Source: Desulfosudaceae bacterium (GTDB lineage: Bacteria; Desulfobacterota; Desulfobacteria; Desulfobacterales; Desulfosudaceae). Taken from it: DNA of 64,000 bases. The stretch lies in contig CAXXDV010000001.1 of NCBI GenBank assembly GCA_963674745.2, forward strand, positions 512,001 to 576,000, in the 5' to 3' direction. Under the pieces are notes generated by a model. The model saw only the letters and a program-made list of their open reading frames with translations, was not told where the DNA came from and did not search any database. Every line of letters begins with the position of its first letter. Within the stretch, counting starts at the first letter, position 1. Positions 7,981-63,980 of the stretch are shown here, one piece after another. The translations under genes were made by a program, and so were the position numbers.

Positions 7981-8096
7981 GCATTAATCATGCCGAAAAA
8001 ATTATTCCATAATATTCAACAGGTTGCTATTTTCACAGCCCCCGGGCTTCGAAATATGAAAGAATTAACTGTGAAATATGAAAAGTTGCCATATAA
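7981..8096 (-). promoter_or_regulatory. sigma54 promoter + IHF-like site + upstream activator repeats
   Basis: minus-strand CGGCATGATTAATGC (7981-7995); attcaacaggttg (8014-8026); gaaatatgaaa twice (8051, 8073). Confidence 0.7.
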
Positions 8097-8119
8097 TAGA
8101 AAATCAGATTGGATACGCT

Positions 8120-10186
8120 ATGAAAATTCGACCCGACAAACTTTTACAGCAGGTGCAAAAGCGCGTCTTTGATGAAGACGACCTTGAGGGGGGGCTGCTT
8201 GATATCTATAAATGCATTTCAGATGTGGTGCCCCTGGAAAGGGTGCTGCTGCTCCATTTCGATCATGATCGGAAGATGTGCCGGGTTATCGCCCATGCCA
8301 TTGGGGTGGGTGCCGAAGAAACCAATTTCATGTTCGACGTTCCCGATGAGATCATTGAACTGTTATGCAGCCAGGCCATGCCCGAGACCCACATCATCAA
8401 CCAGCCGGACAAGGACCCCCTGGGCGCAGAGGTAATGAAGTACAGCGGCATGTCCGACTGGTCGGCATTTCTTGTAAATTTCAAAAACGATACCAACACC
8501 TATGGCGCGGCTGTGATCCTGACTGACGGCAGGGATAAGTTCAAGCAAGATCATTCTTACCGGATCACGCGTTTAAAAGCCCCCCTGCAGCTGGCACTGG
8601 ATACCGCCATCACAGCAAACGAAAAGCGGATTCAGCCGCCCTTGTGGAAAGAACCTGTGGCGGATAAAAATGAATTTTTCCGCCAGGTCACCCGGCGTTT
8701 ATGCGGCCACCTTGACCTGAAAACCGGTGTCGATCTGTGCAATCAATACCTCAGCCGCTTTTTGCCGGCTGACGCGCTTATGGTCATGCAGGTCGAAACG
8801 GGCCTGAAATCCGAACGTATTCATGCCGAGGCCTTCGGGATGCTGCAGCTGCACACCCAGCCTGTTGTCCCCTGGGCACCGGGAAGACCGGCCCCTGATG
8901 CCTTCAGGGAAGGGTTTGAGGCACACATCATCAATGAACCTGAGGACTATCCTGAGATGCGCCCCTATTTCAACCTTTTCGGTGATGACTGGTCGGCGAT
9001 TATCATGCCCCTCGTCCACGAGGACCGGCCGTTTGGTGTCGCGATAATGGCGCTGGTCGGTAAAAACCGCTATACAGAAACGCACAAGCAACTGTTTTCA
9101 TTACTCCATGACCCGTTTGCCCTGGCCCTCTCAAACAACATCAAGCACCGCGAGGTCATCCGGCTGAAAAACATCATCTCGCAGGAGAGAAAAGACCTTC
9201 AGAAAGAATTGAATTTCCCCGCAGCAGGCACTATCGTCGGTGCCAGGCATGGCTTAAGAGATGTCATGGACAGTGCCCGCCTTGTTGCCGAACAGGACAG
9301 CCCGGTATTGCTGACAGGAGAAACCGGCGTGGGCAAGGAAATTATCGCCAATTTCATCCATCAGCAGTCATCGCGAAGAGACGGCCCTTTTATCAAGGTG
9401 AATTGCGGTGCCATACCGGATACGCTGGTGGACAGTGAGCTGTTCGGTCATGAGAAAGGGGCTTTCACCGACGCCCGAAGCCGGAAAAAGGGCCGCTTTG
9501 AACGGGCCAGCAGGGGAACCATTTTTCTGGATGAAATCGGCGAACTGCCCCTGCCGGCCCAGGTGCGCCTGCTCCGGGTGCTGCAAAACAAAGTCATTGA
9601 ACGCGTTGGCGGCACCGAAGCCATACCCGTTGACATCCGCATTATCGCCGCCACCCACCGCAACCTGGAAGAACTGATGGCTTCCGGGAAGTTCAGAGAA
9701 GACCTGTGGTTCCGCCTGAATGTATTTCCCATCCGGATCCCTCCCCTGCGTTCAAGAAAAGAGGATATCCCGGCCCTGGCAGACCACTTTATCGAGAAGA
9801 AATCCTTTGAATTACGATTCCAGGACCAGCCGACCCTTTCGACAAACGCCATGCGAAGGTTGACCGCTTATGATTGGCCGGGAAACGTCCGCGAACTGGA
9901 GAACGTGATTGAAAGGGAATTGATCCTGAACAAAGGCGGGCGGCTGACGTTTCAGCATGTCAGCCCCGAACCGCCGAAAGACAACCCTTCTGAACCGGCC
10001 ATTAAGGAAGATAATATCCTGTCCCTGGATGAGGTCTTTGCCCGTCATGCAAAAGAAGCGCTGACCCTTTCCGGCGGAAGGGTTGAAGGTCCGGGTGGTG
10101 CCTCGGAATTGCTGGGCATTAAACCCGGCACCCTGCGCAGCAGAATGAAAAAACTCGGGATTCCCTACGGCAGGAATAAGACATGA
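8120..10186 (+). CDS. sigma54-dependent activator with two GAF-like domains
   Basis: GETGVGKE, GAFTDA, FLDEIG, WPGNVREL, HTH; long N-terminal sensor region. Confidence 0.95.
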   Translation: MKIRPDKLLQQVQKRVFDEDDLEGGLLDIYKCISDVVPLERVLLLHFDHDRKMCRVIAHAIGVGAEETNFMFDVPDEIIELLCSQAMPETHIINQPDKDPLGAEVMKYSGMSDWSAFLVNFKNDTNTYGAAVILTDGRDKFKQDHSYRITRLKAPLQLALDTAITANEKRIQPPLWKEPVADKNEFFRQVTRRLCGHLDLKTGVDLCNQYLSRFLPADALMVMQVETGLKSERIHAEAFGMLQLHTQPVVPWAPGRPAPDAFREGFEAHIINEPEDYPEMRPYFNLFGDDWSAIIMPLVHEDRPFGVAIMALVGKNRYTETHKQLFSLLHDPFALALSNNIKHREVIRLKNIISQERKDLQKELNFPAAGTIVGARHGLRDVMDSARLVAEQDSPVLLTGETGVGKEIIANFIHQQSSRRDGPFIKVNCGAIPDTLVDSELFGHEKGAFTDARSRKKGRFERASRGTIFLDEIGELPLPAQVRLLRVLQNKVIERVGGTEAIPVDIRIIAATHRNLEELMASGKFREDLWFRLNVFPIRIPPLRSRKEDIPALADHFIEKKSFELRFQDQPTLSTNAMRRLTAYDWPGNVRELENVIERELILNKGGRLTFQHVSPEPPKDNPSEPAIKEDNILSLDEVFARHAKEALTLSGGRVEGPGGASELLGIKPGTLRSRMKKLGIPYGRNKT

Positions 10187-10257
10187 TACACATATTTCAT
10201 GGACTGTTCTGAAATCCTGATCATCGGCCCATTGCAAGGCGCAAGGCATGCATACAC

Positions 10258-10345
10258 GTAGGGGCACCCCCCTGTGGGTGCCCTTCTATCGGGCGGCCAC
10301 GGGGGGGTGCCCTTCTATCGGGCGGCCACGGGGGGCCGCCCCTAC
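10258..10345. repeat. GTAG-family REP doublet with internal 29-bp tandem duplication
   Basis: GTAGGGGCACCC...GCCCCTAC ends; gggtgcccttctatcgggcggccacgggg occurs twice. Confidence 0.75.
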
Positions 10346-10363
10346 TAATAATTGGTGAACGAT

Positions 10364-12439
10364 ATGATGAAAACTGAGCCGGACGTTTTAAACCGGATAA
10401 TGCAGCGTGCAGCCGCAGGCGGGGACGTCTACGAAGCGCTGTTCGCTTTTTATGGTTATCTTCGCCGGATACTGCCCGTCGATCGAATGAGCCTGGTTCA
10501 ATTTGATTTTGACAGGCTTATACTGCGATCTGTTGCCCAGTCCTCTGACACGGGATGTGAAAAAACGAATTTTCAGTTTCATCTGCCCGCTGAAATTGTT
10601 GACCTCATTCAAAATGAAAGTCTGCCACGAGCACACACGATCAATGAACCGGAAATGGATCTGATCGGTAAGAATATAGCCGTAAGGTTTCGTCTTTCGG
10701 ACTGGTCCATGATGAGCATAAGGATTAAGGATCAGGCCGTCGTTTACGGGGCAATTTTTTTTGTAACAAAAGGCCGGAACAAATATACTGAAAATCATAC
10801 CCGCCTGTTAACCGGTCTATATGATAAGCATAAATGGTTTCTTGAGGCTGTAATCAAGGATCATGACGAAACATCGGCCGGGCCCGGACAAAAAGAACCC
10901 ATACCCGGTAAATATGAATACTTCCGTCAGGTCACCCGCCGATTGTGCGGCCATCTTGATCTTGAGGCCGGGGTTTTGCATTGCCTTCAATACCTCAGCC
11001 GGTTTATGCCGGTTGCTACACTTGCCGTTCACAAGCATTATACGGGCCCGGGGGACGACTTTATCGGGGTCAGCCCGAACGGATTTTTCGACTATTTCAA
11101 CCCTGAATTTATGACCCGGTCGACCGAGCACCTGAGCCCATCAGGAAAGACGGATAATCCCAAAGTCACCATCATCAATCAGCCCGAACGCAATCCCGCC
11201 ATGAAACATAATGTAAAACTGTTCGGCCCCAACTGGTCGGCGATTACCATGTTTCTCCAGCACAACAGGGATCCGCTCGGCATGGCTTCGATCATCACCG
11301 AAGGGGAAAACGCCTATACCGAAGAACACCGGCGCCTGTTTGCAATGCTCCATGATCCTTTTGCCCTGGCGCTTTCAAATTACAACAAACATCACGAAAT
11401 CATCCAGCTGAAAAACATCATCGAAGAAGAGAAGAAAGACCTTCAGGAAGAGCTCAAGCGCTCCGGAGCGTATACCATTATCGGCGAAAATTCGGGCCTG
11501 AAATCGGTAATGGAAAACGCCCGCCTTGTCGCCGGGCAGGACAGCCCGGTTTTGCTGACAGGAGAGACCGGTTCCGGCAAGGAAATCATCGCCAATTACA
11601 TCCATCAGCAATCATCGCGAAAGGACGGCCCCTTAATCAAGGTCAATTGCGGCGCCATTCCGGACACGCTGCTGGACAGTGAACTGTTCGGCCATGAAAA
11701 AGGCGCCTTTACGGGTGCAGAGAACCGTAAAATCGGCCGCTTTGAAAGGGCCGACAGAGGGACGATCTTTCTGGATGAAATCGCCGAGCTGTCGCTGCCG
11801 GCCCAGGTCCGCATGCTCCGGGTACTCCAGTATAAGGTTATCGAGCGTGTCGGCGGAACGGAAGCCATACCCGTTGACGTCCGCATCATCGCCGCCACCC
11901 ACCGCAACCTGGAAGCACAGACGGCATCCGGGCAATTCAGGGAAGACCTCTGGTTCCGCCTGAACGTGTTTCCGATCCGGATCCCCCCGTTGCGTTCAAG
12001 AAAGGCGGACATGCCGGACCTGGTCAACTATTTTATCGAAAAAAAATCCCGTGAATTGAAACGCCAGGATCCCCCCCCCCTGTCTCCTGATGCCATGGAA
12101 CGGTTGAGCGCGTATGAATGGCCGGGAAACGTGCGTGAACTGGAGAATGTGGTTGAAAGAGAATTGATTCTAAGCCGGGGAGAAGTACTCACGTTTCAGA
12201 GCATTACCCCCGGGCCGTCAAAAGGCAGTTCTCCGGACACGGCGATTTCCGCTGAGGACTTTTTGAAAATGGATGAGGTCTACGTCCGTCACATTGAAAA
12301 AGTGCTGGCTTATACAAACGGCAAGGTCAGCGGCCCCGGGGGCGCTGCCGAACTGCTGAAAATAAACCCCGCTACCCTGCGAAACCGGATGAAAAAACTG
12401 GGGATCCCCTACGGCTGGGAAAAGGAAAAAACAACCTAA
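10364..12439 (+). CDS. sigma54-dependent activator with two GAF-like domains (paralog)
   Basis: GETGSGKE, GAFTGA, WPGNVREL, HTH; shares FRQVTRRLCGHLDL with 8120-10186. Confidence 0.95.
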   Translation: MMKTEPDVLNRIMQRAAAGGDVYEALFAFYGYLRRILPVDRMSLVQFDFDRLILRSVAQSSDTGCEKTNFQFHLPAEIVDLIQNESLPRAHTINEPEMDLIGKNIAVRFRLSDWSMMSIRIKDQAVVYGAIFFVTKGRNKYTENHTRLLTGLYDKHKWFLEAVIKDHDETSAGPGQKEPIPGKYEYFRQVTRRLCGHLDLEAGVLHCLQYLSRFMPVATLAVHKHYTGPGDDFIGVSPNGFFDYFNPEFMTRSTEHLSPSGKTDNPKVTIINQPERNPAMKHNVKLFGPNWSAITMFLQHNRDPLGMASIITEGENAYTEEHRRLFAMLHDPFALALSNYNKHHEIIQLKNIIEEEKKDLQEELKRSGAYTIIGENSGLKSVMENARLVAGQDSPVLLTGETGSGKEIIANYIHQQSSRKDGPLIKVNCGAIPDTLLDSELFGHEKGAFTGAENRKIGRFERADRGTIFLDEIAELSLPAQVRMLRVLQYKVIERVGGTEAIPVDVRIIAATHRNLEAQTASGQFREDLWFRLNVFPIRIPPLRSRKADMPDLVNYFIEKKSRELKRQDPPPLSPDAMERLSAYEWPGNVRELENVVERELILSRGEVLTFQSITPGPSKGSSPDTAISAEDFLKMDEVYVRHIEKVLAYTNGKVSGPGGAAELLKINPATLRNRMKKLGIPYGWEKEKTT

Positions 12440-16884: not shown

Positions 16885-16912
16885 CCGTTCCCGGGGGCGG
16901 CGGCCGTGTCGA

Positions 16913-19028: not shown

Positions 19029-20444
19029 TTAATCTGTTTGTGCCCTGTATTCCGCAAGCGCCTTTTGTATTCGATCTAAAAGGTCTTTAGGGAAAAGTTT
19101 TCCGCCCAGTTTTTGCTGAACCGCCTTTCCCGCCTTTTCAAGGGCCTGCCGGTCCTCGGATGAGAAGGTCAGGACTTTCATTCCGCATTTGGTTTCAAAG
19201 GCTTTCAGACTTTTTTCTTCGTAGCTTCTGATCCGTCGGTTCCATTCGGTTTCAAACGAGTTGAGTTCGGAGACAAACAGTTCCATTACATTGTCGGCGT
19301 AAATTCTGGACACGCCCAGCTGGCTGCGAATCCGGTCTACTAATGTGGACCTGATCAGAACAGCACCCGGAGAATAGAGAATCGGCGGTTTGATGTAAAA
19401 ATTCGAGTACTGGTAGGCCTGCATACCCAGCATCCAGGCCGCAGGAGACATATTAACGTTTATCTGGCCCGTGCTGAGGGCCGCAACCGTATCAGGAACA
19501 GCCACCGTTATCGGGTTAATACCCAGTTCCTGATAAAACGCCGTCTCCATGGCACCGAACCACATCGCAACATTCTGTTTTCTGATGTCAGCCAGACCGA
19601 CCGCCTTGTTTACTGAAAACCAGTAACAGTTACCGGTATCGATAAGCGCCCCCAGAATGTAGCCGTTTTTTTCAAAAGCCCGGTCAAATGTTTTTCTGAA
19701 TTTTTTACAGATGTAATCAACTTCATCATAATCATTAAACAAACCGGGCAGCATCAGAACCGAGATATCGGATGATCCTTCCATCAGCCCCACGGCGGTG
19801 CAGCCGCAACTGTCAAGCCGGTCTTCACCCATCTTTCTTAAAACATCTGTATCCTCTCCCATGACACCGCCGCCGTATATCTTTACCAGGAATTTTCCGC
19901 CGGACAGGTTCTCGATCCTCGGCAGGATCATGGTTTCGGGTACGTTCAGCCAGGGCGTGCCCGGAGGGGCGAGGGAGGCTATTGTAAACACGATGGGATC
20001 ATTCGCTTTCATGGCAGTCGGCACTGCCCGCCAAACAATTTTTTTGGCCGCCGGCCACTCCATATGGGGAGAAAAAAGCGCGTTAAAACGTTCGGGCACG
20101 ACATTTAAAATATAACGGGAGGTCATTTGCCGGTCAATTATTGACAGAAAAACTTCTTCCATCATGGTTTCAAACGCAGTCTCGCCCATTGATCCGTTGG
20201 CCAGCATGTTTATCATGGTCTGCTGGCGCTGCTCGAGTGCCGGGCCAAATTCCTGACCGGTCCACAATGCCAGAAGGCTGTCCTGCAGTATGCTCTGAAA
20301 TCTGTCGCGGTCGGCGTCAGCGGCTGTAACGGTCAAGGTGTGCGCTAAAACTAGAAATATAATGATCAGGCAGGGCAATATCCGCAACCGTTTATTCAAA
20401 GCACCCGCATTTAAAAAGGCCATAGCCCTGTTCCCTTCCGGCAT
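19029..20444 (-). CDS. TRAP DctP-family substrate-binding protein with N-terminal extension
   Basis: SLAPPGTPW, YGGGVMGED, ALSTGQIN; signal peptide; start uncertain. Confidence 0.85.
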   Translation of the reverse strand: MPEGNRAMAFLNAGALNKRLRILPCLIIIFLVLAHTLTVTAADADRDRFQSILQDSLLALWTGQEFGPALEQRQQTMINMLANGSMGETAFETMMEEVFLSIIDRQMTSRYILNVVPERFNALFSPHMEWPAAKKIVWRAVPTAMKANDPIVFTIASLAPPGTPWLNVPETMILPRIENLSGGKFLVKIYGGGVMGEDTDVLRKMGEDRLDSCGCTAVGLMEGSSDISVLMLPGLFNDYDEVDYICKKFRKTFDRAFEKNGYILGALIDTGNCYWFSVNKAVGLADIRKQNVAMWFGAMETAFYQELGINPITVAVPDTVAALSTGQINVNMSPAAWMLGMQAYQYSNFYIKPPILYSPGAVLIRSTLVDRIRSQLGVSRIYADNVMELFVSELNSFETEWNRRIRSYEEKSLKAFETKCGMKVLTFSSEDRQALEKAGKAVQQKLGGKLFPKDLLDRIQKALAEYRAQTD

Positions 20445-24956: not shown

Positions 24957-26300
24957 TTATTCGTTCCACCATGACGGCTCGTAAACTTCAGTAGTAACAG
25001 GAATCGTCCACCTGGAAAAGAATTCCCAGATCCTTCGGGCGTAATCAGACTGGCTGGCAACGCCGTCTTTGCCACCCATCAGCGGACCCTCGAAACCATG
25101 GCCCTGCGAGTTGAGTATCTGGCGGACTTCCACACCGCCGGCACAATCCTGGTAGGCGCGTATCCATTTATAGTCCAGATGATCCTGCGACCGAGTCGAG
25201 TCGCTGTTATCGGCGAGTACGGTGTATTCACCCGTGCATTCATTCACTTCGGCCCAGCGGTGCCATCCCCTGTAGCCCCCATTGGACTGAGACCCAATAA
25301 TCGTGGTAGCGCACACATCATTCCAGCAATTCACCTGGTCATTGTATCCATGAATGCCCAGAAAAGGCACAGGGTGGTAACCGCTGTCGCCTTTGTGGTT
25401 CAGTGCATTATTTTTCAGCCATTGGTCAAAGGCAAAGGAATTGGCCGAGATCGCCGCGATGTGAGCGGGTGCCCGGTAGCCCAGGTAGTGGCTCATGGCG
25501 CCGCCGTTGGAAAACCCCATGGCATAGATCTTTCTGGCATCAATCCGGACGTTGTCCTTGATGTAGTCTATCATTTCCGTAATAAAGGCGACATCGTTTA
25601 TGCCATTGTCTTTAGCGTACCCACAACAGGTCCCGCCATTGAACGAGTCATTGAAACCCTGGGGCCAGGCAACAATGAAGCCCTTCGTCGCTTGCGCCAG
25701 GGCCCGCATCCCCGAAGACCCTTTCTGGGTTTCTTTGTTCGCATACAAAGAATGGATGTCGACTATCAGAGCAGGCCTTTCAACGATCTCCGGGGGGATA
25801 TAGACATCAAATATCCTTTTGCCTTCAGGTCTCTGGATGGAACAGCCGGCGTTCATCCCCTCATACAGGTTGCCGTCAGGAGCGAATACAGGAGCGCCCG
25901 TAGCCATGGGCTCCACTGTAAAAGCCGCTTTCTGCTCGAGGCTGTAACTGTCATTATAAAAAAGCCGCGCCTCGTAGCTGCCGACGTCCAGGCCCTGGAA
26001 GTACATGATTCCGTTGGACTCACCGTCCGTATAAAACCATTCCCCGTAGTCGTGGTTGTCGGCTCCCGCCGGGTAAATCGATATCCAGTTTTTTTGCCCC
26101 CCCGGAAGATTGGCGAAGTAGACAACGATCCTTTCACCCTCTAAATAGACGTTCCTGCCCGTTTCCAGGCGTGGTGATCCGGAGGGCGGTGGCGGCGGCG
26201 GTTCAGGCCCTAATGCAAGCACAGCCGCTGAAGGCAGGAGCAGGAACAGGGTGATCGTTGACAGGATAAACGATTTTTTTAACAAGCTTTTTTTCTTCAT
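24957..26300 (-). CDS. secreted LpqC/PHB-depolymerase-family esterase with N-terminal beta-rich module
   Basis: NGGTCC, DVAFI, GFSNGG, IHGYND; signal peptide then PEPPPPPPS. Confidence 0.87.
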   Translation of the reverse strand: MKKKSLLKKSFILSTITLFLLLPSAAVLALGPEPPPPPPSGSPRLETGRNVYLEGERIVVYFANLPGGQKNWISIYPAGADNHDYGEWFYTDGESNGIMYFQGLDVGSYEARLFYNDSYSLEQKAAFTVEPMATGAPVFAPDGNLYEGMNAGCSIQRPEGKRIFDVYIPPEIVERPALIVDIHSLYANKETQKGSSGMRALAQATKGFIVAWPQGFNDSFNGGTCCGYAKDNGINDVAFITEMIDYIKDNVRIDARKIYAMGFSNGGAMSHYLGYRAPAHIAAISANSFAFDQWLKNNALNHKGDSGYHPVPFLGIHGYNDQVNCWNDVCATTIIGSQSNGGYRGWHRWAEVNECTGEYTVLADNSDSTRSQDHLDYKWIRAYQDCAGGVEVRQILNSQGHGFEGPLMGGKDGVASQSDYARRIWEFFSRWTIPVTTEVYEPSWWNE

Positions 26301-26375
26301 GATTGTTTTCTCCCTGTATAAAATCATTTCCATTGATGGAACCATGGAGATGGTTTTATGCGGCTAAAGATTGCG

Positions 26376-27692
26376 TTAATTGAAATTAGTCACAAACCCG
26401 AACGGCTGGGTGTAGGAATCGCCCTTTTTGCCGTCCAGTACGGCGCGGACGAACGGTTGATGGGTGTAATCTTCATAATCGAAGGTCGTTCCGGTTCCGA
26501 CGGTTGTCGTGCCGGGGCCGACCCAGTAAATCTGCTGATACCCCGTGGCGGATATCGTGATCGTCTTGGCGGCCTCGTCCACGATGATGCTGTTGATGCG
26601 CGGCACTTTCGCCTCGCCTGACCCGCCTGGTTCCATACAGAAATAAAACGCACCGTCCTGCATGCATTGCCTGAGTTCGGTCTCGGTGAGCGCCGGCATC
26701 AGCATAAACTGGAAGGCATGGTAAAGGTCATCTGAAGTGTGTTTATCATCGTTTGCAAAGCCCCAGACCATTTTGTCTTCGTATGGAAATATGTACTCGT
26801 TGATGTTGTCCCATAAATAACGGTCATCCTGGTAATAATCATCCCGGTTGATCACTTCCAGGCCGATGCAGGTGTCGTAATCGCTGTACCAGTGGATGTA
26901 CCACTCCCATTCCGACGGCACATGGTATCTTCCCGGATGGGCGATAAAGGACAGGCCGCCGCTTGACTGGACGTGGGGGATGCCGTTTTGGAGATTACTG
27001 CTGGAAGTTGAAAAGTTGAACAAAGCATTCATGTGGTGTGAGTTCGAATATTCATCGCCTTTCACTGCCAGCATATTCAAAGAAGACGGATTTCTGCCAT
27101 AGTCCGTCCAGGGCCAGGTGATCGCGTTGTGATCCGTCAGGGCAAGGATTTTGTACCCGGCCGAGTGATATTGATCGATGGTTTGGGCCGGACTGTGATC
27201 ACCGTCGCTCTCGGTGGTATGGGTGTGAAAGTTGGCCTTGTACTGATTGTAAGTCGACCAGTTTACCCCGTCATAGGGATTCAGGGTGCAGTCCACCTCC
27301 GGATCACCTCCGGCAACGACCGTAAACGACACCTCTGTCTCAAGGTTGTAACTGTCGTCATAGAAAAGCCTGGCCTCGTAACTGCCGGGGGGGTGGAAAT
27401 TGAAGTACATCGTACCGCTCGTCGCACCGAGCGTATAATACCACTCCCCGTAGTCAGTGTTATCGGCTCCGGCTTCGTAAATACCGATCCAGTTTCTGTC
27501 GCCACTTGAAACATTGCTGTAGTTGACAACGATTGTCTCGTATTCCGCATAGACCGACTGGCTCATTTCCAGTTGTGGTTCCGGAGGTGGCGGCGGGGGC
27601 GGGAGAGCGAATACAGCGGCTGATTGTAAAACGAGAAAAAGGGTAAGCAACGACAAAACAAACGATTTTGTCAGCAGTCTTTTTTTCTTCAT
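26376..27692 (-). CDS. secreted PHP-family phosphoesterase with N-terminal beta-rich module
   Basis: HTHTTESDG, LTDHN, AHP, NDDKH; signal peptide then LPPPPPPPEP. Confidence 0.85.
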   Translation of the reverse strand: MKKKRLLTKSFVLSLLTLFLVLQSAAVFALPPPPPPPEPQLEMSQSVYAEYETIVVNYSNVSSGDRNWIGIYEAGADNTDYGEWYYTLGATSGTMYFNFHPPGSYEARLFYDDSYNLETEVSFTVVAGGDPEVDCTLNPYDGVNWSTYNQYKANFHTHTTESDGDHSPAQTIDQYHSAGYKILALTDHNAITWPWTDYGRNPSSLNMLAVKGDEYSNSHHMNALFNFSTSSSNLQNGIPHVQSSGGLSFIAHPGRYHVPSEWEWYIHWYSDYDTCIGLEVINRDDYYQDDRYLWDNINEYIFPYEDKMVWGFANDDKHTSDDLYHAFQFMLMPALTETELRQCMQDGAFYFCMEPGGSGEAKVPRINSIIVDEAAKTITISATGYQQIYWVGPGTTTVGTGTTFDYEDYTHQPFVRAVLDGKKGDSYTQPFGFVTNFN

Positions 27693-27759
27693 TATATTCA
27701 CCTTTGCTGAATTGTGGAATTGGTTTTGGTCGATACAGATTTCCTCTAATCTTTAATAA

Positions 27760-27876
27760 GCATTATTTGTGCCAAAAAATTAATATACACTTTTCAGTTG
27801 GTTACAATTTTGCCAGGAAAATAATTATTAAATAGGGAAATAATTATTACGAAATAGAGAAATGCGTCTCTATTTC
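27760..27876 (-). promoter_or_regulatory. sigma54 promoter + IHF-like site + UAS
   Basis: TGGCACAAATAATGC (27760-27774); tttcagttggtta; aaatagggaaa half-site then palindrome gaaatagaga-N6-tctctatttc. Confidence 0.78.
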
Positions 27877-27956
27877 ACAACTAAGAAAGGGAGCAATGAA
27901 GAGCGGGAATATATGATTACAATTGAATTTTCCAGCCAGCGCAGAAATCATGAAAC

Positions 27957-27992
27957 AAAACGGCCGCGGGGCATAAACCTCGCGGCCGTTTT
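27957..27992. terminator. intrinsic terminator
   Basis: aaaacggccgcg...cgcggccgtttt. Confidence 0.75.
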
Positions 27993-29561: not shown

Positions 29562-29613
29562 TCTTTTCTCCTTCGGTCTATTGGTTGTTTGGATGTTGAA
29601 CACTCAAGGGATG

Positions 29614-31338: not shown

Positions 31339-31458
31339 GCATTAATCGTGCCAAATAAAAAAATATATTAAATTCAATGACTTAAAAGTATTAATGGTAT
31401 TAAGATGTGAGATGGGGAATTTTTTTGCTGTTAAATAGGGAAATCTTCTCTATTTAAC
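31339..31458 (-). promoter_or_regulatory. sigma54 promoter + IHF-like site + UAS
   Basis: TGGCACGATTAATGC (31339-31353); attcaatgactta; gttaaatag-N11-ctatttaac. Confidence 0.8.
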
Positions 31459-31488
31459 AATTAGAAAGGTATTATCGATGATAATGTA

Positions 31489-31978: not shown

Positions 31979-32094
31979 GCATTAATCGTGCCAAATAAAT
32001 TATACCTAACATTCAATATGTTAAAATTTATTCAAACAATTTGTGCGAAATAGGAAAATGGTTGGTTGCGAAATAGGAAACATTGCTCTATTTC
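31979..32094 (-). promoter_or_regulatory. sigma54 promoter + IHF-like site + UAS
   Basis: TGGCACGATTAATGC (31979-31993); attcaatatgtta; gaaataggaaa twice, the second paired with ctatttc. Confidence 0.8.
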
Positions 32095-52075: not shown

Positions 52076-53449
52076 ATGAAGAACACGCATATACTAATGA
52101 TTGGGAAATATTTTTTATTCATATCAGCCACTCTGTTTTTTTTCGCCGTAGCCGCCAGCGCCATGGAAAATGACATTGGCATGACAGCACAGGTCATCAT
52201 AGAGGAAAGCGTTGCCGCTTTGTGGCTCGGCAATTCTTTCAGCCCGCAATTGGAAAAGGAACAGCAGTCTTTGAGAAATATTCTTGAAAACCGTTCAATA
52301 ACCGGGGCTGAACTTGAGAGAATTGTCGCCAGGACAATGCTTTCCATATTAAATTCACAAAAAACCAGCAGATATAATTTACGTGAAATGTACAAAGGCG
52401 TCGAGGAACTGCTTGCGCCTTATATGAAAAGGGGGGAATTAAGAAAGATTGTCTGGCACCAGTTATCATCACAGTTCGGGGAAGGGAGACAATTTAATGT
52501 TAAGGTGGGAACTCTTGCTCCGGTTGGTACCCCATGGCTTGTTCTCCCCGAGAGACTGGTCGCTGAAATACAAGAATTAAGCGGCAATAAGGTTATCTTT
52601 AAGATTTATTCAGGCGGTGTCATGGGCGAGGATGTTGATGTCTTAAGAAAAATGGATATGGGCCAACTCGACGGCTGCGGTTGCACGGCGATGGGAATAT
52701 TAAAAGCAGCTCCCGAGGCGTACGTTTTTCTTCTGCCTGGGCTGTTCCGTAATTATGAAGAAATCGATTTTGTCCTAAATAAGTTCAGAAAAATGATAGA
52801 CAGGACTTTTGAGGAAAAAGGATATATGCTTGCCGCCCTGGTTGACACCGGCAATTTTTATCTGTTTTCAAGATTCAAAACAGACAACCTGGCCGGGATA
52901 AAAAAAAACAAAACAATAACGACGTTTGGGGTCATTGAAACCGAATTGTTTGATGAACTCGGGATCCATGCCATCCCAATTTCGATACCAGAGATAATAC
53001 CGTCCTTAAACACGGGCATTGCTGATACCGTCGTAGCCCCGGCTTCATGGATGCTGGGGATGCAAGCTTATCAATACGTAAATTGCTTCATCAAGGAACC
53101 GTTGTTTTATTCACCCGCAGCCGTCATTGTAAGTGCCAAAATTAAGGACAAGTTGCAGAGAGATATCAATTTGTCGGAGACGGTTGCACATAACATAACG
53201 GAGCTGACCATTTTTGAATTCATCTCTCTTGAAAAAGATTGGAAGGCCCAGACAAGGCATTATGAGAAAAAATGTCTTGAAGCCTTTATTTACAAGGTGG
53301 GGATGAGACCCTTGGTGCTTCCCCCGGAAGACAGGGCGGTTATTGAACAGGCCGGGAAAAAGGTCTGGGAAAAACTCGCCGGCGACGTTTGTCCCCGGGA
53401 ACTCCTGAATGATATCCTGCGGGCTCTTGAGGAATATCGACGGAATTAA
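52076..53449 (+). CDS. TRAP DctP-family substrate-binding protein with N-terminal extension
   Basis: GTLAPVGTPW, YSGGVMGED, LDGCGCT. Confidence 0.85.
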   Translation: MKNTHILMIGKYFLFISATLFFFAVAASAMENDIGMTAQVIIEESVAALWLGNSFSPQLEKEQQSLRNILENRSITGAELERIVARTMLSILNSQKTSRYNLREMYKGVEELLAPYMKRGELRKIVWHQLSSQFGEGRQFNVKVGTLAPVGTPWLVLPERLVAEIQELSGNKVIFKIYSGGVMGEDVDVLRKMDMGQLDGCGCTAMGILKAAPEAYVFLLPGLFRNYEEIDFVLNKFRKMIDRTFEEKGYMLAALVDTGNFYLFSRFKTDNLAGIKKNKTITTFGVIETELFDELGIHAIPISIPEIIPSLNTGIADTVVAPASWMLGMQAYQYVNCFIKEPLFYSPAAVIVSAKIKDKLQRDINLSETVAHNITELTIFEFISLEKDWKAQTRHYEKKCLEAFIYKVGMRPLVLPPEDRAVIEQAGKKVWEKLAGDVCPRELLNDILRALEEYRRN

Positions 53450-55245: not shown

Positions 55246-56106
55246 TTGAAGGCAGAACGCGTGTCGCAGAAAAAACTGATGAAAATATCGGAATTAGGTG
55301 AAAAGACCGGGGCAGCAGCTTCGACCATACGGTTTTATGTCAAGCAGGGCCTCCTTCGCGAACCGATCCGAAAAGGCAGGACCGTCGCCTATTACTCTCC
55401 CCTGCATGTCGAGCAACTCAAATACATACTCGCCCTTAAAAAGAAGAACAAATTTACTTTACATGAGATAAAACAACGGGTTGCCGACAAATTCAAGGAC
55501 ACGCCGGATGATGATCCCGGAAGGCCGTTTATCGGAAAACAGGAAGAGATTATCAGGGCGTCCGTCGATCTTTTCCTCAATAAAGGTTATCATGACACAA
55601 CTATAACCGATATTGTTGATAACGCCGGTATCGGCCGGGGCACATTTTACGCTTATTTTGCCAACAAGGAGGAACTTTTCTGGGAATGCGCCGATAAACT
55701 GTTCAAGGATCTTGACACGCATTTTAATATTATAAAAAACGAAGGCGATGTGCTTTCCCGGTTGAAACGCCGGGCTTACGAGTTTCTGTTAACCTTTCCC
55801 ACCTTGATCAATCTGATCAACATTATCAGGGGGGCGGCAGTAAGCGATTCTGAAATATTTAAGGAAAAGCTTAATATAATGATGCGGCAATTGGTGGCAC
55901 CGATTGTCAATGACCTTGATATCGGTATGCGAAATAATGAAATCAGAGATACTGACAGTACCGTATTAGGACATATCTTAATGGGTGCGGCGGAATATAT
56001 CTCATATTATGCTTATGAACTCGAATTCAACCTGGACAATGACCGGTTTCTGGCCTTGTTCCAGGAAGGATGGGACATGATCTATTATGGCGCCCAAAAA
56101 GATTAA
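55246..56106 (+). CDS. MerR HTH-TetR fusion regulator
   Basis: TIRFYVKQGLL; FLNKGYHDTT...GRGTFYAYF. Confidence 0.9.
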   Translation: MKAERVSQKKLMKISELGEKTGAAASTIRFYVKQGLLREPIRKGRTVAYYSPLHVEQLKYILALKKKNKFTLHEIKQRVADKFKDTPDDDPGRPFIGKQEEIIRASVDLFLNKGYHDTTITDIVDNAGIGRGTFYAYFANKEELFWECADKLFKDLDTHFNIIKNEGDVLSRLKRRAYEFLLTFPTLINLINIIRGAAVSDSEIFKEKLNIMMRQLVAPIVNDLDIGMRNNEIRDTDSTVLGHILMGAAEYISYYAYELEFNLDNDRFLALFQEGWDMIYYGAQKD

Positions 56107-56980
56107 CACACGAAATTCAAAAACCTATTACCGGATTTCCGAGATCTCGCGTATAAGCGGGGTGCCGTCCCAGACGATTCACTATTACGTCCGGGAAGGG
56201 CTGCTGCTGCCGCCGGTCAAGACCAGCAAAACCATGGCGTATTACAGCGAAGATCACCTGGAAAGGCTGTATTTCATAAAAAAACAACAGATCGAGTCAA
56301 AACAGCGCTTAAAGGAGATCAAGCAAAGACTGGCCGATGACTTGCCGGCTGCTGCTCCGGAAGACCATAGGGACAAAGAGGGGCCGTTACCTTTCGCGCA
56401 ACAAAAAGAAACAATCCTTCAAACCGCCATTAATCTGTTCACGCAAAAGGGATACGCGGAAACCAGCATTACCGATATTGTTAATACAGCCGGTGTCGGG
56501 CGCGGAACGTATTACCAGCTTTTCAAAGACAAGGAGGATTTGCTGCTGGAATGCGCGGACCGTGTTTTCTTCGAGCTTTACAGTCATGTCTGGGAAAAAT
56601 TGCAAAATGAAACAGATATGATGAAACGGTTACAGATTCGATTTGAAGCGTATATAAAGAGTCACCCCAGGTGGCGGGACATGATGGATATTATTAAAAG
56701 CCTGGCCAGCACAAATAACCAAAAAGGCGTCCAGAAACACAGGGAAATCCTGCAGCAGATAACCCGGCCCATTGCCCGGGAAATTGACAGGGCAGCCCGA
56801 CAGCAGAAAATCCCGGGGGGCAACGACACCTTCGGCACTATGGCGGCATACATGCTTCTGGGTGCCAGCGACTATTGTGCCCGGCTGCATTTTGAACAGG
56901 GTCATGACATAAACCTGTTGTTTGATCATATCACCCAGTTGGTGTTTGAAGGGATCCGATATAGATCCCGATCTTCCTGA
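56087..56980 (+). CDS. MerR HTH-TetR fusion regulator (paralog)
   Basis: TIHYYVREGLL; FTQKGYAETS...GRGTYYQLF. Confidence 0.9.
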   Translation: MAPKKINTRNSKTYYRISEISRISGVPSQTIHYYVREGLLLPPVKTSKTMAYYSEDHLERLYFIKKQQIESKQRLKEIKQRLADDLPAAAPEDHRDKEGPLPFAQQKETILQTAINLFTQKGYAETSITDIVNTAGVGRGTYYQLFKDKEDLLLECADRVFFELYSHVWEKLQNETDMMKRLQIRFEAYIKSHPRWRDMMDIIKSLASTNNQKGVQKHREILQQITRPIAREIDRAARQQKIPGGNDTFGTMAAYMLLGASDYCARLHFEQGHDINLLFDHITQLVFEGIRYRSRSS

Positions 56981-57227: not shown

Positions 57228-58622
57228 TTATGGATGCGTTTTCCTGTATTCCTCGAGCGCTTTGGTCATGTCGCGAACCAGGTCAGCCGGGAAAACCTTG
57301 CCGGACAGCTTCTGCTGAACGGCTTTGCCTGCCGCTTCAAGCTTTTTCAGGTCTTCGGGAGGCAGCGTGATGGCCTTCATGCCGCACCTGGTCTCGAATG
57401 CCTTCAGGCTTTTTTCTTCAAAGATTCTGATCTGGCGCCTCCACCCCTTCTCCAGGGCGATAATTTCAGCAATGACAATTTCCTGAATGTTATAGGCGAA
57501 CACCGCTGATATGCCGAGCTGTTGCTGGATTCTGCCGATCGTGCTGGCTTTGGAAACCACGACTCCCGGTGAATAGACCAACGGTGGTATGATGTAATAG
57601 TTCATGAATTGATAGGCCTGCATACCCAGCACCCATGCCGGGGGCGCCAGGTTCAGGTCGGTCTTGCCGGTGTTAAGTGACGCGACAACATCGGGGACCG
57701 GAACCGGTGTGGCATTTATCCCCAGTTCCTCATAGAGGGGTGCTTCGATAATACCAAACCATGTCATTGCTTCTTGTTTGGCAATATCCGCCAGGCCGGG
57801 TGTTTTGTACTTTGAAAATAAATAGAAAAAGCCGGTGTCAAATAGTGCCCACAGGGTATAACCGTTCTTTTCAAACCCTTCATCCAGCTGCTTTCGGAAT
57901 TTTTCAAAGATATAATCGACTTCATCATAGTTATTAAACAAACCGGGCAGCAGCAGGGCCGATGCTTCCGGGCAGCTCGCCAGCACACCCAGGGCGGTGC
58001 AGCCGCAGGCGTCGAGCTGCCCGGCATCCATTTTATCGAGGATTTCCTCATCATCCCCCATAACACCGCCCCCGTAAATTTTGATCTGAATTTTTCTTTC
58101 GCTTAATTTTTCTATTTCCGGAAAGGCAATCGTTTCCGGCACACTGAGCCAGGGTGTACCCGGCGGCGCCAGGGTGCCGACTTTATATAATACGGGGTCG
58201 TCTTTGGTGATCACGGATGAAAGCGCCCGCCACAATACGGCTTTTATCGTTTTCCAGTCCAGGTGCGGGAGAAGAAGATCGTTGAAGCGGTCCGGAAAAT
58301 TCACTACGGCATACCGTGATGTTTTATGGCGCTCCAACAAAGACAGGAACATCGTCTCCAGCATGCCTTCCAGCTGAACCTCATTAACGGCACCGGTAGC
58401 CAGCATTGTTTTCAAAAACTGTTGCCGCTGCAGTAACCCCGGATCGGTTTCCCCGCCCACCCACATCGTTTCAAGACTTTCCCGCATTATGTCTTGAAAT
58501 GATTTGATGTTGTCATCAGCGCCGGTGACGCCAGGCGGCAGTCCGATGGTGATGATCATGAAAACAGAACAAAACAACCATCTCTTCATAACAATCCCGG
58601 TTCTGATATCAAGTAAGGCCAT
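57228..58622 (-). CDS. TRAP DctP-family substrate-binding protein with N-terminal extension
   Basis: GTLAPPGTPW, YGGGVMGDD, LDACGCT. Confidence 0.85.
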   Translation of the reverse strand: MALLDIRTGIVMKRWLFCSVFMIITIGLPPGVTGADDNIKSFQDIMRESLETMWVGGETDPGLLQRQQFLKTMLATGAVNEVQLEGMLETMFLSLLERHKTSRYAVVNFPDRFNDLLLPHLDWKTIKAVLWRALSSVITKDDPVLYKVGTLAPPGTPWLSVPETIAFPEIEKLSERKIQIKIYGGGVMGDDEEILDKMDAGQLDACGCTALGVLASCPEASALLLPGLFNNYDEVDYIFEKFRKQLDEGFEKNGYTLWALFDTGFFYLFSKYKTPGLADIAKQEAMTWFGIIEAPLYEELGINATPVPVPDVVASLNTGKTDLNLAPPAWVLGMQAYQFMNYYIIPPLVYSPGVVVSKASTIGRIQQQLGISAVFAYNIQEIVIAEIIALEKGWRRQIRIFEEKSLKAFETRCGMKAITLPPEDLKKLEAAGKAVQQKLSGKVFPADLVRDMTKALEEYRKTHP

Positions 58623-58697: not shown

Positions 58698-60125
58698 CTA
58701 ACGGGCTGCCCGGAAATCTTCCAGCGCCTTTCGAATATTGTCGATCAGGTCTTTTGGGAAGAGTTTCCCGGTCAGTTTCTGCTCGACCGCCCTTCCTGCC
58801 ATTTCAATGGCATTCTGGTCTTCGGGTGACAATGTTATGGCCTTCATGCCGCATTTTATTCCAAAGGCCTCCAGACTTTTTTCTTCGTATGTTCTGATCA
58901 GCTCCTTCCATTCAGGCTCAATAGCGTTGAATTCGGAGACGAACAGTTCCATGACATTGTTGGCGTATGTATCAGACACTCCCATCTCTTTTCGCAACCG
59001 GTCCCGAACGCTGGAGTTTACCAGCACAGCCGCCGGAGCATAAAAAACCGGGGGGGTGAGAAAAAAATTCGTGTACTGGTAGGTCTGCATGCCCAGCATC
59101 CAGGCTGGTGGGGCCATAATAACGCTTGCCTGGCCTGTGCTCAAAAGGTTAATGACATCAGCCAGAGCTACAGGCTCAACCTTACTTATGCCCAGTTCCT
59201 GATAAAAAAGGGTCTCTATGGCGCTGTTTAAGTATACAGAATTTTCTATTTTCAAGCCCGCCAGGCCGGAAACTCTGTTTACTGAAAACCAGTGCAAATT
59301 ACCGGTATCAACAAGGGTACACAGAATGTAACCGTTTTTTTCAAATGCCTGGTCCAGCGTTTTTCTGAACGTATTGAAGATGTAATCTACTTCTTCGTAA
59401 TTTTTGAACAGTCCGGGCAGCGACAATACACAAGACACAGGGGATGCTTCCAGCATGCCCAGGACGCTGCAGCCGCAACTGTCGAGTTGACCGTCTCTCA
59501 TTTTTTTTAAAACGTCCGAATCCTCTCCCATGACCCCGCCGCCGAAAATTTTGATTAAAACTTTTCCTCCGGTCAGTCTCTTAATCCTTGGAAAAAGGAT
59601 GTTTTCGGGCACATTAATCCAGGGCGTTCCCGGGGGGGCAATGGCGCCGACTTTAAATATCATAGGGTCTTTGTTCTGGAGTGGCGAAGCGGCAACACGC
59701 CATATGATGGTTTTTGCTGTTTCCCACTCCATGCGGGGGGAAAATAGGGCGTTAAATCGTTCTGAAACATTGTTTAAAATATACCGGGATGTTCGATCAC
59801 GGTCCAGTACCGGTAGGATTGCCTTTTCAAGCATGCCTTCAAGGGCCTCTTGAGTTATGATGCCGCTTGACAGCATGGCTTTCATTGCCTGCTGGCGTTG
59901 CTCGAATTCCACAGGAAATTCCCGGCCGGTCCACAATGCGGTCAAGCTGTCCTGCAGAATGCTTTGAAAGTTATCAGCGTCTTTATCCGCTGCCATGGCG
60001 GCAAGTGGCAGGCCGGCAACAGCCGTAACGGTTATAACGGCAATCATCGTCAACAGCCGTGTCTTGGCTGAAAACGAACGGCTTCTAAACATCATCCCCC
60101 CCCTTGTTATCATTATTGCCTTCAA
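58698..60125 (-). CDS. TRAP DctP-family substrate-binding protein with N-terminal extension
   Basis: GAIAPPGTPW, FGGGVMGED, LDSCGCS; start uncertain. Confidence 0.85.
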   Translation of the reverse strand: MKAIMITRGGMMFRSRSFSAKTRLLTMIAVITVTAVAGLPLAAMAADKDADNFQSILQDSLTALWTGREFPVEFEQRQQAMKAMLSSGIITQEALEGMLEKAILPVLDRDRTSRYILNNVSERFNALFSPRMEWETAKTIIWRVAASPLQNKDPMIFKVGAIAPPGTPWINVPENILFPRIKRLTGGKVLIKIFGGGVMGEDSDVLKKMRDGQLDSCGCSVLGMLEASPVSCVLSLPGLFKNYEEVDYIFNTFRKTLDQAFEKNGYILCTLVDTGNLHWFSVNRVSGLAGLKIENSVYLNSAIETLFYQELGISKVEPVALADVINLLSTGQASVIMAPPAWMLGMQTYQYTNFFLTPPVFYAPAAVLVNSSVRDRLRKEMGVSDTYANNVMELFVSEFNAIEPEWKELIRTYEEKSLEAFGIKCGMKAITLSPEDQNAIEMAGRAVEQKLTGKLFPKDLIDNIRKALEDFRAAR

Positions 60126-61217: not shown

Positions 61218-61264
61218 AATGCCTCCTGCTTAAAGGGAATTAAAAGGATAAGGATTCAAAAAAT

Positions 61265-62248: not shown

Positions 62249-62361
62249 CTTCCAATTATTGTTAACATCGTGATGCTGTTTATTTGCTGAATTAGTTTCA
62301 AGATATAGGCAATTGTCCTGGTATGCTTACCGGGGCAATGATCTCTATCAAATCCTGTCTT

Positions 62362-62798
62362 TCAATATTTCATTTTTATCGTAATTTTCGTGCTGCGTTC
62401 CATTTTGAAGGATGCTTTTTCGAACGCGGGTGGTCCGAGGGCCCCTTTGGCGTTGTTGGAAAAGGCGTAACCCTCCCTCGGAATCCCCAGGCGGTTCTTG
62501 TCCAGCTTGAAATTGGCGTTGGCGTCGTGGAAAACAGCCACGGCGTATTCGCCCGGGTCGGGACGTTGTGGAAGGTATAGGTGAGGATCGTGCTTTTCAG
62601 GGGCACATCCTCGCTCATGTCATCCTTGTGGATGCATTTGCCCGGGGTCCTGGTCCAGCAGGAAAAGCAACCGACGAGGTTTATTACCTCCACTTTGGCC
62701 CCTGCACCGGCCATGCCCTCTATAAGAGCCTCGAGCATGATCTGGGTCTTGCTGTCGGCGCCTGTCCGGGCACTGGAATTGACCGCGAAAACCTTCAT
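62362..62798 (-). pseudogene. chimeric remnant: iron-sulfur flavoprotein N-terminus + DUF2141 C-terminus
   Basis: NSSAR..GCFSCW..PGKC..KDDM, then after a frameshift PGEYAVAVFHDANANFKLDKNRLGIPREGYAFSNN...PPAFEKASF. Confidence 0.7.
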
Positions 62799-62909
62799 TT
62801 ACCCCTCCTTACTAAACGAACGGCCGCAAGTTATACACCCTGCAGCCGTTCGTTTATTTGACTGTAGTTCAATCAGTTACGGTTTTTCAATTTCTGTTCC
62901 GGGCCCGCG

Positions 62910-63866
62910 TTACCTGGAAAACTGGTAGAAGAAATCCACGATTTCCCGGGCAAGGTCCACGCCATTGTCATTCCAGGCATCCCCTGCACCCGTCAGGTAG
63001 GGCGCATGACCCGCGTCGAGCTTGAGCATTTCTACTTTGACGCCCCCGTTACAATCACAATAGGTTTTACGCCAGGCATTCCAGTTCCAGGATTGGGTGA
63101 TTGACGGAAATGGCCATCCGGCACATCCGTTCATAAATGCCCAGTCATTAAAACCGTCTTCCGTCGTGCCATACAAGGTGAGCATGCCGGCAAACATCAA
63201 TGGGTCCCTGTTGCCGAGGACCTGAAGCACCGCCACCGGCTGGGAAGGCCATGACCAGACACCGTATTCGACAAGCGGGAAGGACACGGGTGCAATCGCC
63301 GCGAATATATCGGCTGCCTGCAGTCCCAGCTGGTGAGTCAGGGCAGCGCCGTTGGAGTGGCCGTGGGCATAAACACGATCCGGATCCACATCTGCCCGGG
63401 CTTTGACCCAGGAGACCATCTTCCTGATAAAACCGACATCATTTACATTGACACCCCCCATGGCCGAGGCGCCCGGGCAACAGACGACACCATTCCAGGA
63501 ATTGCCTAATCCGAGGGGGTTGGATCCCTGCGGTGAGACCCAGATAAACCCTTTTTCATCTGCCAGTGCCTTGATCCCATGATAACCCCCTATATCTGAG
63601 GTTCCGCCATGGCCATGAATATCAACCACCATCGGCGCCGGCCCGGTTAAGCCCTGGGGGATATAAACCTTGAACGTTCTTGTGTTGTTAAATCCGTCAT
63701 TAAATTTAATAGAGATATCATGGGTTACGCCGGGTGTAAGATCGCCGGGGTCGGACGGGGGCGGCGGCGGCGGAGCACTTGCGAACACAGCGGTTGATAG
63801 AAAAAGCAGGAAAAGGGTAATGATTGACATAACCGCTGTTTTTCTTAACCGGTTTTTTTTCTTCAT
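62910..63866 (-). CDS. secreted LpqC-family esterase
   Basis: WNGVVCC, DVGFI, GHSNGA; signal peptide then APPPPPPSDP. Confidence 0.87.
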   Translation of the reverse strand: MKKKNRLRKTAVMSIITLFLLFLSTAVFASAPPPPPPSDPGDLTPGVTHDISIKFNDGFNNTRTFKVYIPQGLTGPAPMVVDIHGHGGTSDIGGYHGIKALADEKGFIWVSPQGSNPLGLGNSWNGVVCCPGASAMGGVNVNDVGFIRKMVSWVKARADVDPDRVYAHGHSNGAALTHQLGLQAADIFAAIAPVSFPLVEYGVWSWPSQPVAVLQVLGNRDPLMFAGMLTLYGTTEDGFNDWAFMNGCAGWPFPSITQSWNWNAWRKTYCDCNGGVKVEMLKLDAGHAPYLTGAGDAWNDNGVDLAREIVDFFYQFSR

Positions 63867-63934
63867 TGTTTCTTCCCCCTTACATTTTTATGGTGTTTGT
63901 TCAAATGCGATTATAACGAGTTACATCTTGTAGA

Positions 63935-63980
63935 GCATTATTCATGCCAAAACAATTATGTTCAAATATTCAAATGGTTA
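63935..63980 (-). promoter_or_regulatory. sigma54 promoter + IHF-like site
   Basis: TGGCATGAATAATGC (63935-63949); attcaaatggtta (63968-63980). Confidence 0.75.

Follow-up and report, generated by a model that had tools for sequence, protein, structure and literature searches.

A recurring sigma-54-type promoter class linked to paired tandem-GAF activators and exported hydrolases in a Desulfosudaceae genome

The window analysed here, a 64,000-nucleotide stretch of a Desulfosudaceae genome (G000, 5.55 Mb; contig C1, positions 512001–576000), carries five −24/−12 boxes of sigma-54 type, all on the minus strand and named below by their window positions, together with genes for the activators that probably serve such promoters. 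The first box, p7981 (7981–7995), lies upstream of a gene for a C45 autoproteolytic hydrolase (6396–7895) that begins with a signal-peptide/poly-proline cassette. The second, p27760 (27760–27774), precedes an operon (24957–27701) encoding a PHP/CehA-like metallohydrolase (26376–27701) and then an esterase of the polyhydroxybutyrate (PHB)-depolymerase family (24957–26345), and the third, p31339 (31339–31353), precedes an operon (28062–31245) of an esterase (29614–31245) followed by a second C45 hydrolase (28062–29603); all four of these proteins carry the cassette. The sole gene of p31979 (31979–31993) encodes a 102-residue PilZ-domain protein without a signal peptide (31615–31923), and the first gene of p63935 (63935–63949) another PHB-depolymerase-family esterase with the cassette (62910–63866). 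All of these target genes lie on the minus strand. Divergent from p7981, on the plus strand, is an activator gene with GAF-GAF-AAA+-helix-turn-helix (HTH) architecture (8120–10186), which we call A-type, followed by its tandem B-type partner (10352–12439). The window opens within the 3′ part of another B-type gene (1–1158, plus strand; genome C1:511080–513158) that belongs to a pair on its left, and a further A/B pair (C1:576043 and 578164), divergent from p63935, starts 43 nt beyond the window's end.

The pattern YGGCAYNAWTAATGC matches the window exactly five times, on the minus strand only, at the five boxes announced by an earlier note on this DNA (the original prediction). Dinucleotide-shuffled sequences had 0.02 matches on average, and none of 100 reached five; the pattern was written post hoc, so the shuffle figure overstates the significance. 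The canonical sigma-54 consensus is TGGCAC-N5-TTGC, with GG and GC doublets ten bases apart. The boxes found here take the form TGGCAC-GATTA-ATGCT (TGGCAC-N5-ATGCT; CGGCAT-N5-ATGC in p7981), in which an A for T at −15 is the single mismatch to the canonical −12 element. Both doublets are present at that spacing in all five window boxes, and GG and TGC are invariant in all 12 class promoters that we aligned. When the five window regions are aligned, conservation is limited to the box and to the integration host factor (IHF)-like and upstream activating sequence (UAS) motifs, while the spacers have diverged. Mean column identity is 73% over the promoter core versus 55% over 300 nt, and invariant columns occur only within motifs. 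Sigma-70-like sites do not exceed shuffled expectation (14 versus 11.0±3.3, and 5 versus 4.3±2.1). The genome encodes one rpoN gene (Sigma54_DBD, 208.8 bits; cut-off 22.8) and 42 strong sigma-54 activator AAA+ domains. Judged on sequence grounds, the five boxes are probably genuine sigma-54 promoters. A 5′ leader with a hairpin-like inverted repeat is common to p7981 (7905–7965), to a class promoter at C3:1601846 (1601865–1601935) and to the ortholog in the related genome G002 (locus L019, near 7030–7100). No Rfam match was found for this leader, and scanning the whole window against Rfam at gathering thresholds gave no matches, so that a known leader RNA does not explain the shared 5′ leaders.

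Upstream of the boxes, a position weight matrix (PWM) placed 18-nt UAS units centred about 58–60 and 81–83 nt from the 5′ end of the box, 22–23 nt apart; a third unit, inverted in p27760, p31339 and p31979, lies at about 98–100 nt. In p7981, three minus-strand units of the CATATTTC type (8046–8063, 8068–8085 and 8085–8102; together 8046–8102) occupy the whole gap to the divergent activator gene. The minus-strand array of p27760 (27824–27881) comprises units at 27824–27841 and 27846–27863 and an inverted one at 27864–27881, and that of p31979 (32042–32099) comprises units at 32042–32059 and 32065–32082 and an inverted one at 32082–32099. The p31339 array (31427–31461, minus strand) has a unit at 31427–31444 and an inverted one at 31444–31461, its proximal unit being degenerate and below threshold. 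The UAS of p63935 lies outside the window (genome C1:576007 onward) and is visible only in the genome sequence. The palindrome AAATAG-N9–13-CTATTT matches the window three times (27852, 31433 and 32071) against 0.03 expected. Thus both the repeats spaced by 22–23 bp in the four promoters with visible upstream DNA and the palindrome in three of them, as the original prediction had described, were recovered.

If a tandem UAS pair is defined as two units of at least 11 bits each, 21–23 nt apart, the genome contains nine such pairs, of which seven had fed the PWM and only two are independent. A −24/−12-like box follows every one of the nine (eight at 48–51 nt, one at 71 nt), and a 2-Mb Markov control yielded no tandem pair at all. 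The IHF-like core, for its part, occurs in 3.5% of AT-matched random windows.

This core, WTTCAR-N4-TTR, lies on the plus strand 18–19 nt past the −24 end of all five window boxes, at 8014–8026 for p7981 (on the strand opposite to transcription), 27792–27804 for p27760, 31372–31384 for p31339, 32011–32023 for p31979 and 63968–63980 for p63935, in agreement with the ATTCAA-N4-TTR-like site that had been predicted there. The core is not enriched over the window as a whole (12 matches versus 7.2±2.5 expected), and its non-random feature is its fixed position: 12 of the 14 class promoters have it at a constant offset and orientation, and at other canonical sigma-54 boxes of the genome it occurs in 5 of 31, variably placed. 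On the presumption that transcription starts about 12 nt after the GC, the core spans roughly −45 to −57, with an A/T-rich tract between it and the box and the UAS beginning at about −76. The genome encodes four full-length proteins of the HU/IHF family, including alpha-like (C3:2169046) and beta-like (C1:741169) IHF candidates, and IHF at the class promoters is a plausible hypothesis.

The same element, written as TAAC-N4-TGAAT, might instead be bound by a repressor or by one member of the A/B pair, or might act as an intrinsic bend or an extended contact for sigma-54 or the alpha C-terminal domain together with the A/T tract. The systematic mismatch to the exact WATCAR form, which occurs in just 1 of 14 class promoters, speaks for such a role, as do the invariant position and orientation of the core in 12 of the 14, its rarer and variably placed counterparts at other sigma-54 boxes, and the scores of the best IHF candidates (93.3 bits for alpha-like, 89.7 bits for beta-like), which fall below the curated equivalog cut-offs of about 120. 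The UAS and the −24 box nevertheless flank the element, the A/T tract is on the expected side, and the mere 60 nt or so that separate UAS and promoter would call for a sharp bend. Moreover, its geometry equals that of the IHF-dependent orp2 promoter of Desulfovibrio vulgaris Hildenborough (DvH), where functional IHF sites are only 67–78% like the Escherichia coli consensus (PMC3897727). We therefore regard a non-IHF function as somewhat unlikely and retain an IHF-type element as the working hypothesis.

The class extends to about 14 promoters in the genome, beyond the five of the window. The exact box occurs nine times, seven of them within C1:505670–575935 and all seven on the minus strand. 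The genome-wide scan that the original prediction called for did return further sites: a profile seeded on the five window promoters found C3:1601846, C1:508871 and C1:505670 (E = 5e-8 to 6e-7) and C1:493952 (E = 2e-4), and its weaker matches at C3:2057386 and C3:2549426 (both E = 0.025) and C3:2386882 (E = 0.37) directly adjoin genes of the activator family. C3:2518453 is an additional class promoter. A model built from 12 promoters added weak matches at C3:1316031 and C3:2202437 (E of about 0.002). The exact box at C1:1775516 was judged a chance occurrence; it lies in G+C-rich, gene-like sequence without the upstream module and was missed by the profile.

Family matches agree with the gene list of the original prediction (two C45 hydrolases, three esterases, a PHP protein and a PilZ protein). 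Both C45 proteins pass the cut-off of 85 of the C45 model NF040521 (119.6 bits for 6396–7895 and 113.7 bits for 28062–29603). The esterases score 106.8–123.8 bits against the model for extracellular type 1 short-chain-length polyhydroxyalkanoate depolymerases (NF050058), below its cut-off of 150, and the solved chains closest to them come from PHB-depolymerase-family, feruloyl and acetylxylan esterases (E = 2e-9 to 1e-5); they are best named esterases of that superfamily. Class targets outside the window include a carboxylesterase, a Lif chaperone with its lipase, an enoyl-CoA hydratase and an EEP-family protein, among others. LipQ/LipR provides sigma-54 control of a lipase gene in Pseudomonas, LipR being a two-component response regulator. 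That system resembles the promoter at C1:505670 in placing a sigma-54 promoter with a UAS before a secreted lipase with a Lif-type chaperone, and differs from it in the two-component regulator, in place of the tandem-GAF one-component sensor found here.

By a hydropathy heuristic, 11 of the 14 first genes have a signal-like N-terminus. The non-secreted targets are the PilZ protein and, outside the window, the enoyl-CoA hydratase and an FAD/CCG oxidoreductase. Enzymes of unrelated families (C45, PHP/CehA-like, PHB-depolymerase-family esterases, EEP and lipase) have in common a Lys-rich signal peptide that is nearly identical between them and leads into a poly-proline run. With six window genes as its seed, a profile of the cassette picked out 11 genes among 13,858 open reading frames (ORFs), compared with only 5 for a strict regular expression. 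For ten of the 11, a class promoter reading in the same direction lies no more than 4.5 kb upstream; the eleventh adjoins a family activator and has a sigma-54 box of canonical form. Cassette genes outside the window are C3:1601947, C3:2513816, C3:2518579, C3:2549568 and C1:504464, and the link between cassette and promoter is repeated in the related genomes G002, G007 and G011. Two GspD secretins of the type II secretion system score above cut-off, so an exit route from the periplasm exists. Hence the label “secretome regulon” is a fair description, cytoplasmic exceptions aside: the placement of the cassette genes and the signal peptides of most first genes support it, and the PilZ protein is the part of the predicted set that is not secreted.

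The cassette may serve as a sorting tag; alternatively, it may be a 5′ module shuffled along with the promoter. Taken to its limit, the latter idea would make the shared features a matter of common descent only, with a promoter and signal-peptide cassette copied before different enzymes that are no longer co-regulated and whose UAS no longer work as enhancers. The near-identical cassette directly behind the promoters of unrelated enzymes, suggestive of 5′ modules that moved together, and the leader common to p7981 and C3:1601846 fit this account. We consider it very improbable: conservation is motif-specific, with the spacers diverged (55% over 300 nt versus 73% in the core), the module persists next to orthologous activators in different genera, and class promoters also precede genes that have no cassette (PilZ, enoyl-CoA hydratase, carboxylesterase and Lif).

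Two further observations concern the boundaries of these transcripts. A terminator-like hairpin with a 15-bp stem and T runs on both sides (27957–27992) lies between the p31339 operon and the p27760 UAS and is likely a bidirectional terminator. A second PilZ gene (5590–5949), 446 nt downstream of the C45 gene of p7981, has its own sigma-70-like site (5985–6013, 10 of 12 matches) and may lie outside the p7981 transcript.

The sigma-54 activator gene divergent from p7981 was confirmed to start at 8120, as predicted, and not at 8078 as listed by the ORF finder. It is one of 13 GAF-GAF-AAA+-HTH activators of 687–723 residues in this genome that form a single clade (support 94), comprising an A-type sub-clade of seven promoter-proximal genes (support 91), a B-type sub-clade of five distal genes (support 100) and one outlier. 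Five A/B tandem pairs account for ten of the 13 genes, every B-type lying downstream of an A-type. Four pairs are on C1 (494092/496176, 508984/511080, 520120/522352, which is the window's 8120/10352, and 576043/578164) and the fifth is on C3, where a DDE transposase gene stands between the A-type and the B-type (C3:2543231–2549279; L006:5231–11279). With the A members and the B members of the five pairs each falling into a clade of their own, the A/B pair was probably duplicated as a unit. A divergent class promoter lies beside all seven A-types and also beside the outlier; the UAS therefore overlies the activators' own control region, and autoregulation may follow from this arrangement.

The predicted fold of the family's N-terminus contains two GAF domains (predicted local distance difference test score 78), with tandem-GAF and GAF-PHY modules as its best structural matches. 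Identity in the first GAF domain is 35–66% within a type and 28–37% between types, compared with 67–81% in the AAA+ domain. Walker A and B motifs are intact and the HTH is kept in all 13 proteins. In the L1 loop that contacts sigma-54, the window A-type (8120–10186), and it alone, has GAFTDA instead of GAFTGA, and one B-type has GSFTGA. Both types look catalytically competent from these motifs, and the GAFTDA A-type may depend on its B-type partner. FhlA carries two GAF domains. The family shares with it the GAF-GAF-AAA+-HTH order and a length of about 690 residues, model positions 287–686 of 692 aligning with residues 295–695. We rejected orthology to FhlA, since the scores against its NCBIfam model (NF011958) are 298.5–328 bits versus a cut-off of 830 and the targets differ too. 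All family scores against the NCBIfam equivalogs FhlA, NifA and NorR lie below the respective cut-offs.

When the model of 12 G000 promoters, built from sequence only, was run over 31 whole genomes, matches at E ≤ 1e-6 were obtained in G000 (13), G002 (6), G003 (1), G007 (2), G010 (1) and G011 (1), and the other 25 genomes gave none at that threshold. The five relatives with strong matches are those that carry full-length family activators. Weak matches (E = 2e-4 to 0.01) occur in ten genomes, two of them adjoining shorter relatives of the activators (about 530 residues). The module stands divergent to orthologous activators in G002, G003, G007 and G011 (seven matches at E < 1e-3 in 150,883 bases), and further loci from metagenome-assembled genomes (MAGs), labelled Desulfosudaceae, Desulfobacterales and similar, gave six matches in 57,569 bases, some of these MAG records being duplicates of the G-numbered genomes. 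A/B pairs are present also in G002, G007 and one MAG. Although these genomes are kin and not independent, promoter class and activator family plainly travel together.

Our preferred interpretation, to which we assign a probability of about 0.72, is that these sites constitute one conserved, lineage-specific class of sigma-54 promoters that is served by a family of paired activators, bent by an IHF-type element and directed mostly at exported hydrolases. Each promoter would consist of the box, the A/T tract and IHF-like core at the positions given above, two UAS units that face the same side of the helix, at about −85 and −107, and, at about −124, a third unit that is frequently inverted. The units would be read by members of the 13-paralog family. 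Once the tandem GAF domains sense their signal, three dimers on three units would assemble into a hexamer, which a sharp IHF-type bend would deliver to the closed sigma-54 complex. The predicted output is mostly exported and comprises PHB-depolymerase-family esterases, C45 hydrolases, the PHP/CehA-like enzyme, the carboxylesterase, and the lipase with its Lif chaperone.

Several points weigh against this interpretation. The IHF-like core is missing from 2 of the 14 class promoters, and its departures from the WATCAR form and the sub-threshold IHF scores discussed above count here as well, as does the contribution of most tandem UAS pairs to the matrix that found them. Three of the 14 first genes have no signal peptide, as judged by a crude hydropathy heuristic and not by SignalP. 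The relatives are kin and do not represent independent samples, and the activator tree was made with a quick method, not as a careful maximum-likelihood tree. Finally, the recognition helices are nearly identical across all 13 paralogs, so that cross-binding, and with it effectively one shared regulon, could occur.

This last point bears directly on the number of activators. The original prediction had one activator, plausibly one of the three GAF paralogs of the window, inducing all five window promoters; in its broadest form, one activator or pair, for instance the 8120 gene, would drive the whole class, with the other paralogs redundant or feeding into the same promoters. Beyond the likeness of the recognition helices, this proposal can draw on the single core consensus and equal offsets of all UAS units, on the three promoters p27760, p31339 and p31979 that have no adjacent activator (the orphans), and on the 8120 pair being the nearest to them, at about 17–22 kb. 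Every A-type retains its own divergent class promoter, however, in relatives as well; the sensors have diverged to 28–66% identity while the AAA+ domain stays at 67–81%; the UAS variant groups correspond to different pairs (73% and 53–63% identity, see below); and the orthologous promoter in G002 retains the C-TATTT-G variant of the C1:508871 type. Control by a single activator is quite unlikely, given the divergence of the sensors and the separate promoter that each pair retains. What stands of the predicted interpretation is a promoter of sigma-54 type in which an IHF-like element separates the −24 box from an upstream UAS; its single activator is not supported in a genome with 13 paralogs and five A/B pairs, in which each A-type has its own class promoter and p63935 its own pair.

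Under our preferred interpretation, the window promoters are most likely divided between at least two activator pairs, with p7981 most likely paired with its own divergent 8120/10352 and p63935 with its own pair outside the window. The orphans group with p63935 by the bases that flank the TATTT of the UAS. At positions −1 and +1 these promoters have C and C/A, compared with A/G and C/T in p7981 and C3:1601846, C and G in C1:508871 and C1:505670, and A/G and G in C1:493952. UAS identity is 73% between C1:508871 and C1:505670, and 53–63% among the orphans and between them and p63935. The flank groups suggest that the orphans answer to the pair right of the window, and service in trans by the p63935 pair is our best guess, held at slightly less than even odds; the assignment draws on 45–63% ungapped UAS identity and two variable positions, differences too small for a firm call. 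The recognition helix varies along similar lines in most pairs, with Asn before Pro accompanying C-TATTT and Lys accompanying purine-TATTT, in contrasts that are few and related. The G002 pair at L019:9431 contradicts this co-variation, which we retain just as a hint.

The promoter architecture itself is known, being of the textbook sigma-54 type represented by DvH orp and by NorR. In DvH, orp2 has sigma-54 at −11, IHF at −43 and the enhancer-binding protein (EBP) site at −88 (PMC3897727), and orp (OrpR/DVU2106) is likewise a compact sulfate-reducer promoter of similar geometry, with a co-localised, divergent activator gene (PMC3897727, PMC8359166) and IHF sites that match the E. coli consensus in part. 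OrpR is a single PAS/Fe-S activator that uses one 17-bp palindrome per promoter in a two-operon regulon, whereas the system described here combines 13 tandem-GAF paralogs with about 14 promoters of two or three tandem units each, and its targets are exported hydrolases. At E. coli norVW, three enhancer sites are needed for formation of the NorR hexamer (PMC2831303). NorR resembles the present activators in its GAF sensor and in the three enhancer sites that precede its sigma-54 promoter; it differs in having only one GAF domain and in serving one promoter as the single activator, without paralog pairs or secreted targets.

Precedents also exist for paired activators. HrpR and HrpS of Pseudomonas syringae are tandem, co-evolved paralogous EBPs that form a hetero-hexamer, and resemble the A/B genes in having been kept together in evolution (PMC3105312). 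HrpR/S are a single pair acting on one promoter, in contrast to the five pairs here; these have full tandem-GAF sensors and intact ATPase motifs in both partners and might form hetero-oligomers. HrpR and HrpS are not known to carry sensor domains. In Aromatoleum anaerobium, the interacting GAF-PAS EBPs RedR1 and RedR2 favour hetero-oligomers and serve three sigma-54 promoters (PMC10084136); they are likewise two paralogous sensor EBPs in an anaerobe, acting on several sigma-54 promoters of one pathway. RedR1 and RedR2 are described there as almost identical, in contrast to the 28–37% identity between A and B in the first sensor domain, and this divergence suggests two different inputs. The A/B pair might be a two-input device in which a heterodimer occupies every UAS unit, each partner reads one TATTT flank and a mixed hexamer assembles, giving five insulated AND/OR gates over subsets of the exo-enzyme set, with the cassette as a tag that sorts the enzymes into a single route of export or anchoring. 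The four C1 pairs do differ exactly at the −1 and +1 bases of the UAS; we nonetheless consider this elaborate scheme unlikely.

We found no description of this system in the open-access papers searched. The novelty lies in the tandem-GAF family with its five co-duplicated pairs, in the diagnostic promoter module and in the link to cassette-tagged exported hydrolases; the finding refines the field without overturning it, because the architecture is ordinary sigma-54 biology. It offers a testable wiring diagram for when a Desulfobacterales-type anaerobe exports ester- and amide-cleaving enzymes, a physiology that is poorly known in sulfate reducers. Since the promoter module and the uncharacterised tandem-GAF family are mutually diagnostic across genomes, the relatives being labelled Desulfosudaceae and Desulfobacterales, they could also serve regulon annotation in MAGs, and the five co-duplicated pairs form a natural series on insulation versus cooperation of paralogous sigma-54 activators.

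Other unusual genes were noted as well. Five DctP/TRAP-type solute-binding proteins of 457–475 residues with signal peptides (window 19029–20444, 52076–53449, 57228–58622 and 58698–60125, and L001:9423–10826) share an N-terminal extension of about 150 residues before the DctP domain. The adjacent, overlapping genes 55246–56106 and 56087–56980 each encode a MerR-type HTH fused to TetR_N, making an unusual tandem of double-HTH regulators, and the gene at 2081–3481 encodes a Ser/Thr protein kinase fused to an Lcl C-terminal domain. Adjoining the promoter region of the PilZ gene, 32234–33076 strongly matches the DAPG hydrolase PhiG domain (E = 1e-84), and the window around it contains many CoA-ligase and beta-oxidation-like genes as well as TetR regulators.

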